Origin: Candidatus Methanoperedens sp.
Lineage (GTDB): Bacteria > Patescibacteriota > Microgenomatia > UBA12405
Direction: 5' to 3'
Assembly (NCBI GenBank): GCA_035562735.1
Contig: DATMWB010000003.1
Location: 44,232 to 108,231 of the forward strand
DNA: 64,000 nucleotides
In this document: positions 13,098 through 40,698 of the stretch, piece by piece
How positions within the stretch are numbered: the stretch's first letter is position 1
How the letters are laid out: every line of letters starts with the position of its first letter
The notes under the pieces: generated by a model
Database searches by the model: none
What the model saw: the letters and a program-made list of their open reading frames with translations, nothing else
What the model was told of the DNA's origin: nothing
Translations under genes and position numbers: made by a program

Positions 13098-13529
13098 ATG
13101 TCATGTTGTAACAACAAAGAATGCAGTTGCCATCAAAATAGTAGCTTTGTATTTGGGATATTTATAGGCTTAATCATTGGTGCAGTTATTGCTATTGTTA
13201 TCTATAAAAATAATCGTGAAAAGGTCTTTGAGAATTTAAAAAAGAAACTAGAAAAAATATTTAAATCGGTTTTGGAAAGTGAAACTTTTCAAAATATTTC
13301 TACACTAAAAAGAAAAGTGGATATTAACAATTCGGCAAAAATATCCAAAAAAATAGTAAAAAAGTCTTCCTCAAAAAATAGTGCGTTGTCCAAACAAAAA
13401 AGTATGGCAAAAGAAGTACCCTCAACATCTCATAAGATTGCTGTAACTCTTCCAAAAGAATTGATTCAAAGAGAGTTTGAAGTAAAGGCACCCCCTCAAA
13501 AGATTAAACCAAGAGTTTTTAAAAAGTAG
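13098..13529 (+). CDS. Small membrane protein with N-terminal Cys cluster and Lys-rich tail
   Basis: It has CCNNKECSCH, then a TM helix, then a K/S-rich low-complexity tail. Its family is unknown. Confidence 0.4.
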   Translation: MSCCNNKECSCHQNSSFVFGIFIGLIIGAVIAIVIYKNNREKVFENLKKKLEKIFKSVLESETFQNISTLKRKVDINNSAKISKKIVKKSSSKNSALSKQKSMAKEVPSTSHKIAVTLPKELIQREFEVKAPPQKIKPRVFKK

Positions 13530-13557
13530 CCTATAACTTGACTTAAATATCGTCGAT

Positions 13558-13566
13558 TGTTATAAT
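13558..13566 (+). promoter_or_regulatory. Extended -10 TGtTATAAT heading a long structured leader
   Basis: TGTTATAAT at 13558-66 lies 30 nt after the upstream stop and about 270 nt upstream of the lipoprotein ATG. Confidence 0.3.
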
Positions 13567-13582
13567 CACCTAATGCAATTTT

Positions 13583-13623
13583 AAGCGAACCTAAGGCAAC
13601 ACGTCTTTCCGTTCGCTTTTTTT
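13583..13623 (+). terminator. Hairpin (AAGCGAAC…GTTCGCTT) plus T7 run, either a terminator for ORF 13098-13529 or an attenuator in the leader
   Basis: An 8-bp stem with a 20-nt loop is followed by TTTTTTT. Confidence 0.45.
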
Positions 13624-13633
13624 GTATCGATAT

Positions 13634-13660
13634 TTGAATACGCATTATATGCGTATTCAA
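13634..13660. repeat. Perfect palindrome TTGAATACGCA-ttata-TGCGTATTCAA
   Basis: It has 11-bp perfect arms and a 5-nt spacer. It could be an operator-like site or a hairpin. Confidence 0.7.
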
Positions 13661-13672
13661 AGTACCTTAACA

Positions 13673-13686
13673 ATCGAGAGTGAGTA
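13673..13686 (+). repeat. Left copy of the 14-bp inverted repeat ATCGAGAGTGAGTA flanking the lipoprotein cassette
   Basis: It is the exact reverse complement of 14731-14744. Confidence 0.75.
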
Positions 13687-13693
13687 AAAAATA

Positions 13694-13759
13694 TACAAGT
13701 TTAGACTTGCACCAAGGACACAAGAAATTGCTTCCTTGATGCAAGTTTTCAAACTTGTA
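13694..13759 (+). promoter_or_regulatory. Long imperfect hairpin in the 5' leader of the lipoprotein gene
   Basis: TACAAGTTTAGACTTGCACCAAGGA …loop… TCCTTGATGCAAGTTTTCAAACTTGTA forms a stem of about 25 bp with one bulge. An SD (AAGGAGG, 13824-30) lies downstream. Confidence 0.45.
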
Positions 13760-13838
13760 TAAGATAAAGTCTTATCCTCCCTGTTTCTCCACCCCTAGCC
13801 AGCCTTAAAACTGGCAACCGCTCAAGGAGGCGGTAACA

Positions 13839-14669
13839 ATGTTCCACCGTGTGTTTGTTTTTCTCACCGTATTGGCAATGCTCCTCGGAGCTGCTGGTTG
13901 TTCCCCCCAAAACCAAGCCAACGTTGAAGCTTGGAACACTTTGTTTTTTGGTTCAGAAATTGAACTTCAGAACCAACCACCCGAGTACAGCGAGACGCTT
14001 CTGGATGCCATCAATAAGTATATTGGCGAAAATTGTCCAATGAAAAAAGATTATGATATTGATGGTAATGGACAGATGTACACCATTTGTCGTGATTTTG
14101 AAGGTGAGGCAATCGAAGTTAAGTCAGCTGATTTCTTGGGTCTAGGTCTTGTTGGCTTGACTGCCGTCAGCCCAATTCCTGGAGATGAACTCCTTGCTGT
14201 CAAGTGGGCCTGGAACTCAGAAAAGACAATCAAGGTCATTATTGCGGTTGTCTTCACTGTTGAGGTTGCCCACACCATCAATGTTGTTTACAGCAAAACA
14301 AGCAACCCGCTTCACAACCCACATAACTCGCAGGTAGCTCGTGATTACATCAGTAGAATTTGGAACGATATCCAAATAAAGTTGAGTAATCCCAAAAATC
14401 CCACCGGACCTATACTGTATTGCGCTGTCGTCGTCTATCAAAACGGAGTTCAATATGTCCGTGTGTTGAGTACTGTTGATAACGTTACCGGGATCATGTC
14501 CTGGTATGGAAGTGAAGGATGGGTACACGCCTTTGACAACAAAGACGTCTATGGTTTTCTTAATGGCATGCCTCGTGGAGCCATTTCCTACGACGTCAGT
14601 CGTCCCCTGCAAGATTGCTTAAACGCACTTGGTAAAGGTGTCCCCGCCGCGAATCAATACGCACCCTAA
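13839..14669 (+). CDS. Lipoprotein of unknown function (G+C-rich relative to surroundings)
   Basis: It has a signal peptide with a lipobox (LLGAAG|C), a strong SD 8 nt upstream and a visibly higher G+C than neighbouring genes. No family is recognised. Confidence 0.6.
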   Translation: MFHRVFVFLTVLAMLLGAAGCSPQNQANVEAWNTLFFGSEIELQNQPPEYSETLLDAINKYIGENCPMKKDYDIDGNGQMYTICRDFEGEAIEVKSADFLGLGLVGLTAVSPIPGDELLAVKWAWNSEKTIKVIIAVVFTVEVAHTINVVYSKTSNPLHNPHNSQVARDYISRIWNDIQIKLSNPKNPTGPILYCAVVVYQNGVQYVRVLSTVDNVTGIMSWYGSEGWVHAFDNKDVYGFLNGMPRGAISYDVSRPLQDCLNALGKGVPAANQYAP

Positions 14670-14678
14670 AAACCCTAT

Positions 14679-14720
14679 GGTTGGTACTGGCTAACCCCAG
14701 TACCAACCCCCTTCGGGGGA
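14679..14720. terminator. Tandem hairpins between convergent genes (12-bp perfect stem, then a CCCC-cUUCGg-GGGG tetraloop hairpin)
   Basis: The first hairpin is GGTTGGTACTGG-ctaacc-CCAGTACCAACC. The second is CCCCCTTCGGGGG. Confidence 0.5.
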
Positions 14721-14730
14721 CCACAAGCAC

Positions 14731-14744
14731 TACTCACTCTCGAT
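14731..14744 (-). repeat. Right copy of the 14-bp inverted repeat (TACTCACTCTCGAT)
   Basis: It is the reverse complement of 13673-13686, and the pair bracket 1,072 bp. Confidence 0.75.
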
Positions 14745-14749
14745 TTACA

Positions 14750-15367
14750 TTATTCCTCAACTTTTCCAAACACTTCTCTTAGTGATTCATTTACTGTCTT
14801 ATTTTGAACTTGTTCAATTAGTTGTTGTTGATAAGCTACAATTTCCCCATCGGTAATTCCACCCTTTTCCATTATTGTTTTTGCGTGTACTTCGTCTAAA
14901 ATTGATTCTCCGACCTCATCACCAATTCTACCAAGCAAGTTAATCACTATTGGTTTGATTAAAGCTTTTTGTTCCACTGTCAATTCCTCACTTGTCAATC
15001 CCTCAACAATCCACTCCGTAGTTTTATTTTGTAACTCAGCTGGAGGTTCAAAACATTTTCCCTGAGTACTCCAAACCAAAAAGGCGTCGCTAAAAGATTC
15101 TGCCAACACCATTCCCATTCCACTTCTCAATGCGACCCCGTATAAGTCTGTTTGTTCTGAAACATAATTCTCAACCGAAGCTATAACATCTAAATTATTA
15201 TCAATTCTAGCCACGCCATAGACAAATGCTAGTGATTCTACCCCCAATTTATCAATATTTCCCTTATTCATTTCCGTCACCGCTCTCACATCTTCAATTG
15301 AAGACCTTGCTCCGAGTGGTGTCACTTGCATTCCATCAAATATTGAGCGTGATTGTTCTGCAGCCAT
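14750..15367 (-). CDS. Hypothetical acidic protein (205 aa)
   Basis: A clean ORF divergent from alaS. No recognisable domain. Confidence 0.45.
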   Translation of the reverse strand: MAAEQSRSIFDGMQVTPLGARSSIEDVRAVTEMNKGNIDKLGVESLAFVYGVARIDNNLDVIASVENYVSEQTDLYGVALRSGMGMVLAESFSDAFLVWSTQGKCFEPPAELQNKTTEWIVEGLTSEELTVEQKALIKPIVINLLGRIGDEVGESILDEVHAKTIMEKGGITDGEIVAYQQQLIEQVQNKTVNESLREVFGKVEE

Positions 15368-15388
15368 AGCTTATTGTACCGCATTTCT

Positions 15389-15397
15389 TGCTATAAT
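15389..15397 (+). promoter_or_regulatory. Extended -10 TGcTATAAT 6 nt upstream of the alaS ATG (leaderless geometry)
   Basis: TGCTATAAT at 15389-97 with the ATG at 15404 and no SD. Confidence 0.4.
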
Positions 15398-15403
15398 CTC
15401 CCT

Positions 15404-17278
15404 ATGAACGCACGGGATTTGAAAAACAAATTTGTTGATTTTTTCAAAAACTATCAACATGCCGAAATTCCCAGTGCTTCAATTGTTCCCGAAAACGATC
15501 CCACCACTCTTTTCATTTCTGCTGGCATGCACCCCCTCGTTCCTTATCTCTTAGGTCAACCCCATCCTCTAGGCAAAAGGTTAGTTGATGTTCAAAAATG
15601 TATTCGTACTGGCGATATCGATGAAGTCGGTGATACCTATCATCACACTTTTTTTGAAATGCTTGGCAACTGGTCTCTTGGTGACTATTTCAAAAAAGAG
15701 ATGATTGCTTTTTCCTATGAGTTTTTAACCAACAAAAAATATCTAGGTCTTGATGTATCAAAATTAGCTTTCAGCTGTTTTGCTGGTGATCAAGACGCTC
15801 CTCGTGACGAAGAAAGTTTCAATTTTTGGCGTGAACAGGGAGTTAGTCCCAGCAGAATTGCCTATTTACCTAAAAAAAATAATTGGTGGGGTCCCGCTGG
15901 AGCTACTGGCCCCTGTGGTCCAGATACCGAAATGTTTTATTGGACAGGGGAGAGTGAAGCACCCGAAAAATTTGATGCCAATGATAGTCGTTGGTTGGAA
16001 ATTTGGAATGACGTTTTTATGCAGTACAACAAAAAAGCCAATGGTACCTTTGAAGCACTAAAAGCTCCAAACGTTGATACAGGTATGGGGGTTGAGCGAA
16101 CTACTGCAGTTTTATCGGGCTTATCGGATAATTATCAAACCTACATTTGGCAACCAATAATTCAAAAAATAGAGGAAATCTCTGGGAAAAAATATGTCGC
16201 TGCAATGAATAATCCCGTCATTGCGAGTAGCACATCCGTCATTGCGAGCGAAGCGAAGCAATCTTCTAAAAAAATCGCCACCTTATCTTCTACTTCTAAC
16301 GATGACGCCCGAAGTTTTCGCATTATCGCTGACCATATAAAGGCTGCAGTTTTTATGATTGCCGACAGTGTTGAACCCTCAAACAAAGAGCGTGGTTATG
16401 TTCTCCGTCGTCTTATTAGACGTAGTATCCGTCAAGGTAAAATTTTGGGAATAGAGCAAAATTTTTGCTCTATTATTGCCACTACTGTTTTAGACAATCA
16501 AAACAATTATGCTGGTACCTATTCCGAACTAGATTCAAACAAAAATAAAATTTTAGAGACTTTAGAGGCTGAAGAAACCAAATTTCGTCGCACTCTCAAC
16601 AAGGGTCTTAGTGAAATTACAAAATTAATTATCCGTCAAAAAAGTGTCTCCGGAAAAGAAGCTTTTGACTTATACCAATCCTTTGGTTTCCCCGTCGAAA
16701 TGATAGAGGAAGAATTAAGAAGAAACAATTTATCTTTAGATATTGCCGAGTTTAACCGTCTAAAAGAGGAACATCAAAAACTATCTCAAACTCTTTCTGC
16801 CGGAAAATTCAAGTCAGGTTTAGCTGATAATTCCGAAATTATCACCAAATATCACACTACTACCCATCTAATGCACGCCGCTCTTAGAAAAGTTTTGGGT
16901 GAGCATGTTGAACAAAGTGGTTCCAATATTACCTCAGAAAGACTTCGTTTTGATTTTTCCCATCCGCAAAAAGTTGCCGAAGATCAGCTAAAAGAAGTCG
17001 AAAAAATAGTCAATGAACAAATTAATGCCTCACTTTCCGTCACTGTGGAATCTATGAAATTTACTGATGCCCAAAAATCTGGTGCCTTAGCCTTTTTTGG
17101 CGCTAAATACCCAGAAATTGTTACTGTCTATACAGTCGGTGACCCAAAAAGTTTTTTTTCAAAGGAAGTCTGTACCGGCCCCCATGTCGATAATGTTGGG
17201 AAATTAGGTCATTTTGAAATTCAAAAAGAAGAATCCGCAGGCAGTGGCAAGCGTCGGATTTATGCTATTCTTAAGTAA
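15404..17278 (+). CDS. alaS: Alanyl-tRNA synthetase, short form lacking the C-Ala domain
   Basis: Met at 15404 aligns to the AlaRS N-terminus (…FVDFFKNYQHAEIPSASIVPENDPTTLF…). The catalytic and editing domains are present (HxxxH …CTGPHV). The ORF ends right after the editing domain. Confidence 0.88.
   Translation: MNARDLKNKFVDFFKNYQHAEIPSASIVPENDPTTLFISAGMHPLVPYLLGQPHPLGKRLVDVQKCIRTGDIDEVGDTYHHTFFEMLGNWSLGDYFKKEMIAFSYEFLTNKKYLGLDVSKLAFSCFAGDQDAPRDEESFNFWREQGVSPSRIAYLPKKNNWWGPAGATGPCGPDTEMFYWTGESEAPEKFDANDSRWLEIWNDVFMQYNKKANGTFEALKAPNVDTGMGVERTTAVLSGLSDNYQTYIWQPIIQKIEEISGKKYVAAMNNPVIASSTSVIASEAKQSSKKIATLSSTSNDDARSFRIIADHIKAAVFMIADSVEPSNKERGYVLRRLIRRSIRQGKILGIEQNFCSIIATTVLDNQNNYAGTYSELDSNKNKILETLEAEETKFRRTLNKGLSEITKLIIRQKSVSGKEAFDLYQSFGFPVEMIEEELRRNNLSLDIAEFNRLKEEHQKLSQTLSAGKFKSGLADNSEIITKYHTTTHLMHAALRKVLGEHVEQSGSNITSERLRFDFSHPQKVAEDQLKEVEKIVNEQINASLSVTVESMKFTDAQKSGALAFFGAKYPEIVTVYTVGDPKSFFSKEVCTGPHVDNVGKLGHFEIQKEESAGSGKRRIYAILK
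16216..16264 (+). repeat. Interspersed repeat copy A (partial unit plus full unit) inside the alaS coding sequence, in frame
   Basis: CGTCATTGCGAGtagcacatc + CGTCATTGCGAGCGAAGCGAAGCAATCT. It translates as VIASSTSVIASEAKQS within a loop insertion relative to canonical AlaRS. Confidence 0.7.
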
Positions 17279-39806: not shown

Positions 39807-39857
39807 ACCAATGCTTGTTTTAGCGTCGCATCTCATTTCCTAAATAAGGAGAGCTTG

Positions 39858-40535
39858 ATGAGCGACAATCGTTCTTTGACAATCGAAGGTGGGTCGACCG
39901 TGACCATCAGTTTCAAGACTGATCCCGCCAATGATTGGCAGCTAACGCTGCAAAACGTTCGGGAAGAGGAAGGCGGAATTTTCGCCGACAATTTTCTTCT
40001 TGCCCGGAAAAACGGTCAACATTTCTTTGCCAAACTCGTAAAAGTTTTGGGGATCAAAGCCGACGGATCAGAATTTCCGTACTGGCTTCCCAGGATTTTT
40101 GACATCGGGAATGGCTACAAATGTGGAGATGTCGTAATTCAGTTTCGCAAACACCCCCAGTCGAAACGCTGGATGGTTGATGTGGAATCAGAATACGGCA
40201 GCAAGTCTCCCGATCTCCTAGAAAAGGTTATCCGAATCAGTCGTTCTTCGCTTGACAATATCAAGCAGGCTGTTAAGAAAACCGTCAAGGAAACCGGACA
40301 AGACTGGCTCAACTCTCAGCGTATTGGTGGAGACAAAGTTTCCATGCATTGCGTTGACGCAGGTTGGTCACCACAGCTTTTTGCTCAGGGCAAGGTAATG
40401 GATGTTTTCGACTTCGTTGCAAATTCCCATGATGGTCCCGGGAAAATCGCACTAGTTGAAGCACTTCAACACCTTCCCACCCCCATCGCCAAGCAAGTCG
40501 CGATGTGTATCATTGTTCCTCCAACCGAGGAATAA
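39858..40535 (+). CDS. Hypothetical protein, G+C-rich orphan gene
   Basis: A 226-aa ORF with a strong SD and markedly higher G+C than its neighbours. No recognisable domain. Confidence 0.5.
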   Translation: MSDNRSLTIEGGSTVTISFKTDPANDWQLTLQNVREEEGGIFADNFLLARKNGQHFFAKLVKVLGIKADGSEFPYWLPRIFDIGNGYKCGDVVIQFRKHPQSKRWMVDVESEYGSKSPDLLEKVIRISRSSLDNIKQAVKKTVKETGQDWLNSQRIGGDKVSMHCVDAGWSPQLFAQGKVMDVFDFVANSHDGPGKIALVEALQHLPTPIAKQVAMCIIVPPTEE

Positions 40536-40631: not shown

Positions 40632-40689
40632 GTGTCCTCTTCTCTGATTTCAGACTTCGGTCTGTTTAAAAAATCAGGGAAGGGGACAC
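40632..40689. promoter_or_regulatory. Nested hairpin with a 19-bp outer stem (2 G·U if RNA) enclosing a 5-bp stem with a UUCG tetraloop
   Basis: GTGTCCTCTTCTCTGATTT-[CAGAC-TTCG-GTCTG]-tttaaaa-AAATCAGGGAAGGGGACAC. No U-run follows in either orientation, so it is not a canonical terminator. Confidence 0.5.
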
Positions 40690-40698
40690 AGTTATATT

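Follow-up and report, generated by a model that had tools for sequence, protein, structure and literature searches.

In ribosomal RNA (rRNA) operons, a boxA element is followed by boxC, and boxC pairs with a complement beyond the 16S rRNA to form a stem for RNase III; the Nus-modified RNA polymerase is thought to deliver boxC to this distant complement (PMC8632103). Pairing between the two ends of a messenger RNA (mRNA) has also been described, as base pairing of the 5′ with the 3′ untranslated region (UTR) of icaR in Staphylococcus aureus (PMC3868564) and as a 5′/3′ UTR interaction in hbs of Bacillus subtilis (PMC5737220). The analysis presented here concerns a perfect inverted repeat whose two arms lie on either side of a lipoprotein gene in a 64-kb stretch of contig DATMWB010000003.1, hereafter called the window, in which housekeeping genes of a small, AT-rich bacterial genome (G+C content 0.378) are located. 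The 5′ arm (IR-L, AATCGAGAGTGAGTA, 13672-13686, + strand) was found by direct sequence match and inverted-repeat search and is abutted by a boxA-like motif; the 3′ arm (IR-R, TACTCACTCTCGATT, 14731-14745, + strand) lies 5 nt past the stop codon of a gene that converges on the lipoprotein gene.

The locus resembles an rRNA leader, with its order boxB-boxA-boxC, in that a boxA-like motif stands immediately 5′ of a strand whose complement lies about 1 kb downstream, and in that the helix formed by the two would enclose a payload. A strong promoter and a hairpin are likewise found upstream of the motif, and C4 and T6, the critical positions of boxA, do not vary in it. In contrast to the rRNA leader, the payload here is a protein-coding gene and not rRNA, the helix has only 12-15 bp, a hairpin with a U-run is placed between the promoter and the motif, and both Nus binding and RNase III cleavage are putative. 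With icaR and hbs the locus would share the intramolecular pairing of the untranslated ends of an mRNA, which in those two genes affects processing, stability or translation. The 3′ UTR of icaR pairs with the Shine-Dalgarno (SD) region and blocks translation, whereas the helix considered here would lie ~140 nt upstream of an SD that is displayed in a hairpin loop. Further, the interactions in icaR and hbs were shown experimentally, whereas the present helix is proposed from comparative sequence; its conservation, unlike theirs, is unusually deep and extends to relatives whose lipoproteins share 25% identity. Pairing between 5′ and 3′ UTRs already having these precedents, the helix would not constitute a new category.

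Conservation of the inverted repeat

A previous inspection of the same DNA without database searches (the sequence-only reading) had reported the 14-mer ATCGAGAGTGAGTA (13673-13686) together with a second copy, in exact reverse complement, at 14731-14744. Both are present, and the perfect complementarity turned out to extend one base further, to 15 bp, with 1044 nt between the arms. IR-L is located 153 nt 5′ of the ATG of the lipoprotein gene and IR-R 62 nt 3′ of its stop codon, and both arms are outside any conserved open reading frame (ORF), that is, in the 5′ and 3′ UTRs. Judged within a single window, such a repeat is not beyond chance: when the window was simulated with an order-2 Markov model, it contained on average 0.7 perfect inverted repeats with arms 15 bp or longer and 100-3000 nt apart, and 40% of the simulations had one or more. 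It was the conservation across relatives, and not the statistics within the window, that ruled out a chance repeat.

The main alignment covered a 1.25-kb region in seven lineages of Shapirobacteria, which belong to the Candidate Phyla Radiation (CPR). Only 13 of the 276 third codon positions of the lipoprotein gene (5%) are invariant across these lineages, so the neutral sites are saturated. Both arms are nevertheless 100% identical in the seven lineages and match the arms of the window and, because they are invariant where neutral sites are saturated, the repeat must be under strong selection and is not a product of chance. The five longest invariant runs of the region are all non-coding. The longest (21 nt, 13667-13687) comprises the end of the boxA-like motif and IR-L; the third-longest (16 nt, 14731-14746) covers IR-R and stops one base past the complementarity; runs of 18 nt and 13 nt fall in the 3′ hairpins and another of 15 nt in the terminator-like hairpin upstream. 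The 9-nt linker that precedes IR-R has no invariant column (0/9).

More distant loci extended the comparison. In L140, where the lipoprotein is 25% and the convergent protein 27% identical, the layout is unchanged and the arms (AACCGAGAGTGGGTA and the reverse complement of ACCCGAGAGTGGGTG) form 12 perfect pairs; relative to the window, both sides have changed at position 3 (U-A to C-G) and at position 12 (A-U to G-C). The 5′ arm of L143 (35% identical) is cut by the contig end, and its visible part has at position 12 a G·U, which pairs in + strand RNA only. In L139 (46% identical) the 5′ arm reads AACCGAGAGTGAGAA and the 3′ end is missing from the locus. In a formal count, 97.6% of cells are paired, compared with 30-43% after the partner strand has been shifted by one to three columns; double-sided changes occur at two pairs, and 11 of the 15 pairs never vary. 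The alignments demonstrate two arms that are strongly selected, change together in distant relatives and lie outside the coding sequence, and on this comparative footing the arms are functional and under very strong purifying selection.

The contig of L143 begins inside the 5′ arm (L143:1-9, GTGGGTAAC...), and several other short contigs stop 80-140 nt upstream of IR-L. These breaks probably reflect branching of the assembly graph at ultra-conserved blocks that are common to co-occurring relatives, a structural variant being the alternative cause. Rfam contains no family that reaches its gathering threshold in the window, with only noise at E values up to 10 in 13500-14800; a scan of genome contigs with the 15-mer returned at least 119 matches, which were single chance occurrences in unrelated taxa without common flanks; and the 18-nt core had no match in viral contigs.

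Pairing of the arms or a shared recognition motif

The arms can tentatively be read, with somewhat less than an even chance of this being right, as the two halves, one 5′ and one 3′, of a long-range RNA helix that would close the ~1.07-kb lipoprotein mRNA, possibly with the assistance of boxA. Transcription would begin at the conserved strong promoter at 13538-13566, and the polymerase would pass a conserved hairpin and its U-run before transcribing the boxA-like motif GTWCNTTAACA and, directly after it, the 5′ arm. It would then run through the structured leader, a coding sequence rich in G+C at third codon positions (GC3) and two 3′ hairpins that lack a U-tract. The 3′ arm would be transcribed last, and the arms would pair over 15 bp here and over 12-14 bp in distant relatives, looping the message. 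Such a helix might have one or more of three roles: as a double-strand processing site of the RNase III type that sets both mRNA ends, as a shield of both ends against exonucleases, or as an aid in ending transcription so that it does not continue antisense into the convergent gene.

This reading is favoured because the arms are invariant in the seven lineages and their complementarity is kept in the distant loci. It is also favoured because the covariation and the G·U pairs of the leader and the SD hairpin, together with a U·G wobble in a 3′ hairpin of L010 that is compatible with + strand RNA only, fit an RNA read from the + strand. A third reason is that no U-tract terminator was found between the stop codon and IR-R; the 3′ hairpins are not followed by a U-tract on either strand, so nothing obvious halts the polymerase before IR-R. 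Further, the minimum-free-energy and centroid folds of 13655-14755, both of them thermodynamic predictions, close with the 15-bp helix. We infer that the two arms are carried on one transcript and pair in vivo and, likewise, that Nus factors bind the boxA-like motif and that the helix has a function in the life of the message.

The boxA-like motif (GTACCTTAACA, 13662-13672, + strand) belongs to a family with the consensus GTWCNTTAACA, in which nine of the 11 positions (G1, T2, C4, T6, T7, A8, A9, C10 and A11) are invariant in nine loci. The published boxA consensus, GYTCTTTAANA, is gamma-proteobacterial (PMC5725501). When compared with it, L007 (GTTCTTTAACA) matches at 11/11 positions, L003, L135 and L140 at 10/11 and the window at 9/11, the consensus being that of a distant phylum. 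The invariant C4 and T6 are the same pair that was mutated together to inactivate the boxA of Escherichia coli suhB. There are no rRNA genes in the window. Altogether, the resemblance provides a weak lead to boxA.

The boxA-like half and the arm half were combined into a composite motif with a 25-nt consensus. One further match to it exists in the window, on the + strand at 39871-39895 (GTTCTTTGACAATCGAAGGTGGGTC), with four mismatches to the 25-nt consensus, and this copy is significant, as 60 simulated windows contained no match of such quality on either strand. It is found at the 5′ end of an ORF (39855-40535) with a GC3 of 0.50, the only gene whose GC3 exceeds that of the lipoprotein gene. 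An upstream region similar to that of the lipoprotein gene, TATAAT and then AATGC...TTTTAGCG, precedes this ORF, and a UUCG-capped hairpin (40632-40690) lies downstream. The copy has no convincing inverted 3′ partner, the duplex energies being no better than background. It suggests that the 5′ block is recognised by itself, as a separate element.

Several observations weigh against the helix. The covariation rests on the two positions mentioned above in two loci, with most pairs never varying, and a concerted change in two copies of a single recognition motif would look identical. That the arms are perfectly conserved beside stems with free covariation speaks for recognition of the sequence itself and not for pairing alone. 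Transcripts could stop at the 3′ hairpins without reaching IR-R, and the conserved hairpin and U7 between the promoter and the 5′ arm mean that read-through has to be assumed. With 15 bp, the helix is short for a classical RNase III site, and it leaves the constant presence of the convergent neighbour, which encodes a protein of 205 aa, unexplained. As regards its boxA component, the motif of the window matches at only 9/11 positions and matches of such quality are not enriched in the window, and the composite copy at 39871 is without a clear 3′ partner.

The main alternative, which is possible, if doubtful, is that AAUCGAGAGUGAGUA represents one recognition motif that is used twice without pairing and is bound by a sequence-specific protein or a small RNA. 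The two copies would be read in the same sense, one in the 5′ leader of the lipoprotein gene (+ strand) and the other on the - strand, where it begins 5 nt past the stop codon of the 205-aa gene and so falls in that gene's 3′ UTR. The helical protein of 205 aa, whose gene is always adjacent, could itself be the binder and co-regulate the gene pair, and in a DNA version of the same idea a transcription factor would occupy both sites. A stable hairpin follows the motif at both places, and both copies are absolutely conserved while ordinary stems nearby covary, all of which would suit a bound sequence. The copies of L140 change alike, as expected if the specificity of the binder had shifted, and the gene pair is kept down to 25-27% identity. 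The significant third copy at 39871-39895, which adjoins a GC3-rich gene and lacks an inverted partner, likewise suggests that a regulatory motif is shared, but the 3′ block at IR-R has no boxA-like half (six mismatches to the 25-nt consensus) and its conservation ends one base past the complementarity to the 5′ arm, a boundary that a motif recognised without pairing leaves unexplained. The sole asymmetric difference between the arms, at position 12 in L143, goes in the direction that a G·U pair permits, and the motif is non-palindromic, unlike most bacterial operators. As for the candidate binder, its AlphaFold 2 model has a mean predicted local distance difference test (pLDDT) score of 83 and is all-helical, and the best, non-significant folds in the PDB are helical-repeat proteins; the comparison with PDB folds gave no significant match, so nucleic-acid binding by this protein is unsupported.

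Inversion, mobility and replacement of the lipoprotein allele

The sequence-only reading had interpreted the repeat as the boundary of either a site-specific inversion module or a non-autonomous mobile cassette. Invertons such as fimS with FimB/FimE, hin/hix and those of Bacteroides have short inverted repeats that flank 0.3-1 kb near a surface-protein gene, and the present locus is similar in this respect and in having its promoter and its gene on opposite sides of one repeat. A switch in which a recombinase encoded elsewhere flips the 1.07-kb segment, uncoupling the gene from its promoter and producing phase variation, is quite improbable here. The arms are perfect and ~1 kb apart, the strong promoter is outside the left arm with the leader, the SD and the gene inside, the product is a variable surface lipoprotein of the kind that phase variation typically targets, and recognition by a recombinase would keep the arms identical and changing in concert. 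Unlike in invertons, however, the repeats enclose the whole gene and not the promoter, and neither a recombinase nor a flipped junction was found in the data searched. About 20 contigs from independent samples all have a single orientation. A pattern for the flipped left junction (TTAAC, the arm and the reverse complement of the 3′ hairpin) gave no match in either the metagenome or the genome contig collection, a search of assembled contigs, in which low-frequency flips, visible in reads only, would not appear. No recombinase, integrase or transposase was identified among the 25 window ORFs scanned with Pfam or among the conserved neighbours. The arms of L143 differ at position 12, and the leader and the 3′ hairpins are constrained as + strand RNA, both of which speak against inversion.

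The idea of a mobile cassette came in part from the composition of the lipoprotein gene, which had been noticed to be richer in G+C than its neighbours. G+C content (0.454 vs a gene mean of 0.378), GC3 (0.451 vs 0.286, standard deviation 0.045, z = 3.65) and the tetranucleotide profile all bear this out; the gene ranks second of 63 ORFs by GC3, and only one ORF has a lower tetranucleotide correlation to the window. The deviation does not make it a recently imported gene. Every ortholog is GC3-rich (0.42-0.52 vs 0.20-0.35 in neighbouring genes), and a recent foreign origin of the high G+C content was ruled out by this uniform elevation, which has therefore been maintained and does not stem from recent import.

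Comparison of two closely related loci, L002 and L011, showed where exchange has taken place. Their identity is 93-97% in the flanking genes and all along the 5′ UTR as far as the ATG, falls to ~60% (11-25 matches per 30 nt) exactly from start to stop codon and returns to 85-97% past the stop codon. By its 205-aa protein, L011 groups with L002 (90%) and the window (84%), whereas its lipoprotein is closest to those of the distant L003 (77%) and L135 (75%) and only 63-64% identical to those of its sister genomes, so that the two groupings are incongruent. Because the flanks are near-identical, the coding sequence is ~60% identical and the groupings are incongruent, it can be concluded from these alignments that close relatives have had their lipoprotein coding sequence replaced by homologous recombination, and that a recombination hotspot lies between the UTRs, in the coding sequence. 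Two allele types of the lipoprotein exist, which differ chiefly in a central segment. Recurrent recombination may lie behind the persistently high GC3, through GC-biased gene conversion. What had been described as a bounded, exchangeable unit is thus distinct in composition and has indeed had its coding sequence swapped; its limits are other than proposed, since the breakpoints coincide with the start and stop codons, 160 nt and 70 nt inside the arms, and the repeats are therefore not the boundaries of a cassette.

A mobile or exchangeable cassette, whether as an element like a miniature inverted-repeat transposable element (MITE) or with the flanks serving as homology arms for the swapping of lipoprotein alleles, is accordingly very improbable. 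The locus is like a MITE in that perfect terminal inverted repeats, here of 15 bp, surround ~1 kb, and the repeats do enclose a compositionally distinct gene whose coding sequence has been horizontally replaced, as the incongruence between the lipoprotein and its neighbour indicates. Unlike a MITE, it has no target-site duplication: the flanks (...CCTTAAC before IR-L and TACATT after IR-R) contain no direct repeat, and the same is true of all orthologs. The search for other copies of the 14-mer that the sequence-only reading had suggested found a single arm pair in the window, where up to two mismatches to the repeat were allowed, and one pair in each relative locus examined. Contrary to what is expected of a mobile element, the site is fixed and syntenic across deep divergence, every relative found (down to 25% protein identity) carrying the gene in the corresponding position and none showing an empty site, and a conserved host gene lies inside the repeats together with its regulatory RNA structures. 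No viral contig matched, and the use of the flanks as homology arms cannot by itself explain the 100% conservation of 15-21 nt beside a diverging UTR. Readings as an IS200/IS605-type element or an integron cassette were dropped, no transposase or integrase having been found and the synteny being fixed.

The transcript, its neighbours and their meaning

The features that the sequence-only reading had placed between the repeats, namely a long leader hairpin, a strong SD, a lipobox and double 3′ hairpins with a UUCG loop, are all in place, and they form part of a transcript whose layout is conserved from the promoter onwards. The sigma-70 promoter P1 (13538-13566, + strand; TTGACT, a spacer of 17 nt and TATAAT, with TG before the -10) scored 11/12 in a promoter scan and is near-consensus, and its -35 and -10 are kept in every orthologous locus, even in the distant L139 and L140. 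The initial transcribed region (13573-13623, + strand) has 42 of 53 columns invariant in the seven lineages. It starts, ~7 nt past the promoter, with a mini-ORF of three codons (ATG CAA TTT TAA, 13573-13584; conserved as ATGCAAnnnTAA), continues with an 8-bp stem (13583-13590 with 13611-13618) that holds a conserved loop of 20 nt and ends at 13623 with seven T. The stem shows a compensatory C-G to G-C change in L135, and the arrangement of mini-ORF, hairpin and T-run is also found in L139 and L140. From its sequence, the region looks like an intrinsic-terminator-like hairpin or attenuator, or a small RNA of ~50 nt, between the promoter and the repeat.

The next feature, identified by the inverted-repeat search and in relatives, is an AT-rich perfect palindrome (13633-13661, + strand; 13 bp, 3 nt, 13 bp) that retains its dyad symmetry from relative to relative although the sequence varies; it is missing from L140. 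In L002 and L011 it has one imperfect pair, an A·C on the + strand that would be a G·U on the - strand. Candidate roles for the palindrome are those of an operator, a hairpin or a part of a promoter. A second promoter inside it was considered and dropped, as the -10 element is unconserved in alignments read by eye.

On the 3′ side of IR-L, the long leader hairpin (13692-13761, + strand) emerged from the inverted-repeat search and from covariation across relatives; its consensus fold shows G·U pairs on the + strand as well as pairs that have changed on both sides, and in L003 and L135 the hairpin still forms from a different leader sequence. It is followed by a small hairpin read from the sequence (GCCAG...CTGGC, 13798-13815, + strand) and by the hairpin that displays the SD (CCGC-UCAAGGAG-GCGG, 13818-13833, + strand). 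The SD itself is AAGGAGG at 13824-13830, and the stem around it covaries, being CCGG/CCGG in L003 and L135. These comparisons show that the leader 3′ of IR-L behaves as a conserved + strand RNA structure. Beyond the coding sequence, the first 3′-UTR hairpin (GGTTGGTACTGG-CTAACC-CCAGTACCAACC, 14679-14708, + strand), found by the inverted-repeat search, has 12 bp, and the second (~14707-14721, + strand), read from the sequence, has a short C/G stem and the UUCG loop. Both are conserved in sequence, loops included, which is unusual for a simple terminator. The 12-6-12 dyad of the first hairpin could alternatively be a protein site on DNA.

The lipoprotein gene (13839-14669, + strand, from the ORF list) encodes 276 aa with a signal peptide and the lipobox LLGAAG-C. 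The N-terminus reads MFHRVFVFLTVLAMLLGAAG up to the lipobox C, the G-C is invariant in seven orthologs, and the lipobox is one that we take to fit Prosite PS51257. The NCBI model of the protein has 272 aa, which implies a different start codon. Neither the lipoprotein nor the 205-aa protein has a Pfam or NCBIfam match above threshold. The lipoprotein family is tiny: a search of 5.8 billion proteins gave only six clusters of close homologs (63-92% identity), and a 50% library of 1.84 billion proteins holds 15 representatives. A profile search that included distant homologs added only P0028, and a protein-guided scan of metagenome contigs returned two loci, both already known from the other searches. 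The AlphaFold model of the lipoprotein (pLDDT 34) is unusable.

The order of genes around the lipoprotein is the same in every homolog: FtsK, an HTH_25 protein, an ORF of 80 aa, a YtxH-like ORF, the lipoprotein, the convergent gene of ~205 aa and the alanyl-tRNA synthetase (AlaRS) gene. The context of P0016, a more distant locus, is still syntenic. The convergent gene (14750-15367, - strand) accompanies the lipoprotein gene in all loci, L140 among them. As listed, the AlaRS ORF has a TTG start (15353) and overlaps the divergent 205-aa gene; its true start is likely the ATG at ~15404 (MNARDLKNKF...), which leaves a divergent intergenic region of 36 nt (region 15353-15404), as in the orthologous loci. 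Other genes of the window encode polynucleotide phosphorylase (PNPase), prolyl-tRNA synthetase (ProRS), FtsK, AlaRS, a sortase, RuvX and YceG, and there are ORFs of the size of RpoB/C, ORFs like EF-G/EF-Tu and ORFs of the size of ribosomal proteins. The nearest named relatives are Candidatus Shapirobacteria. Identical proteins at NCBI (HWS48498.1 and HWS48499.1, from a contig of 111,911 nt) are labelled Candidatus Methanoperedens, the name of an archaeon; given the CPR gene content and the nearest relatives, this label is probably a binning or labelling error.

One lesson of the locus is that a terminal inverted repeat around a gene of odd composition can mimic a mobile element and still be a fixed regulatory feature. 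Bacteria of the CPR, or Patescibacteria, cannot be grown in pure culture, and to our knowledge almost nothing is known about their gene regulation. In this setting, perfectly conserved non-coding blocks stand, amid saturated synonymous sites, on both sides of the gene for a lineage-specific surface lipoprotein, the alleles of which are exchanged between close relatives. A broader proposal, which is rather unlikely to hold as a whole, is that a protein gene of a CPR bacterium is expressed by machinery in the style of an rRNA operon. A boxA-type element would load Nus factors, these would tether the adjacent leader strand to the polymerase and deliver it to its complement 1 kb downstream, and a helix for processing or termination would close the whole mRNA. 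The composite element would also mark at least one other GC3-rich gene, that at 39871, so that surface or accessory genes prone to recombination and transcribed in this special way would form a small regulon. If the arms do pair, the lipoprotein message would be one of very few bacterial mRNAs closed by 5′/3′ pairing, by far the most deeply conserved of them, and the first with a layout like that of an rRNA leader around a protein gene.

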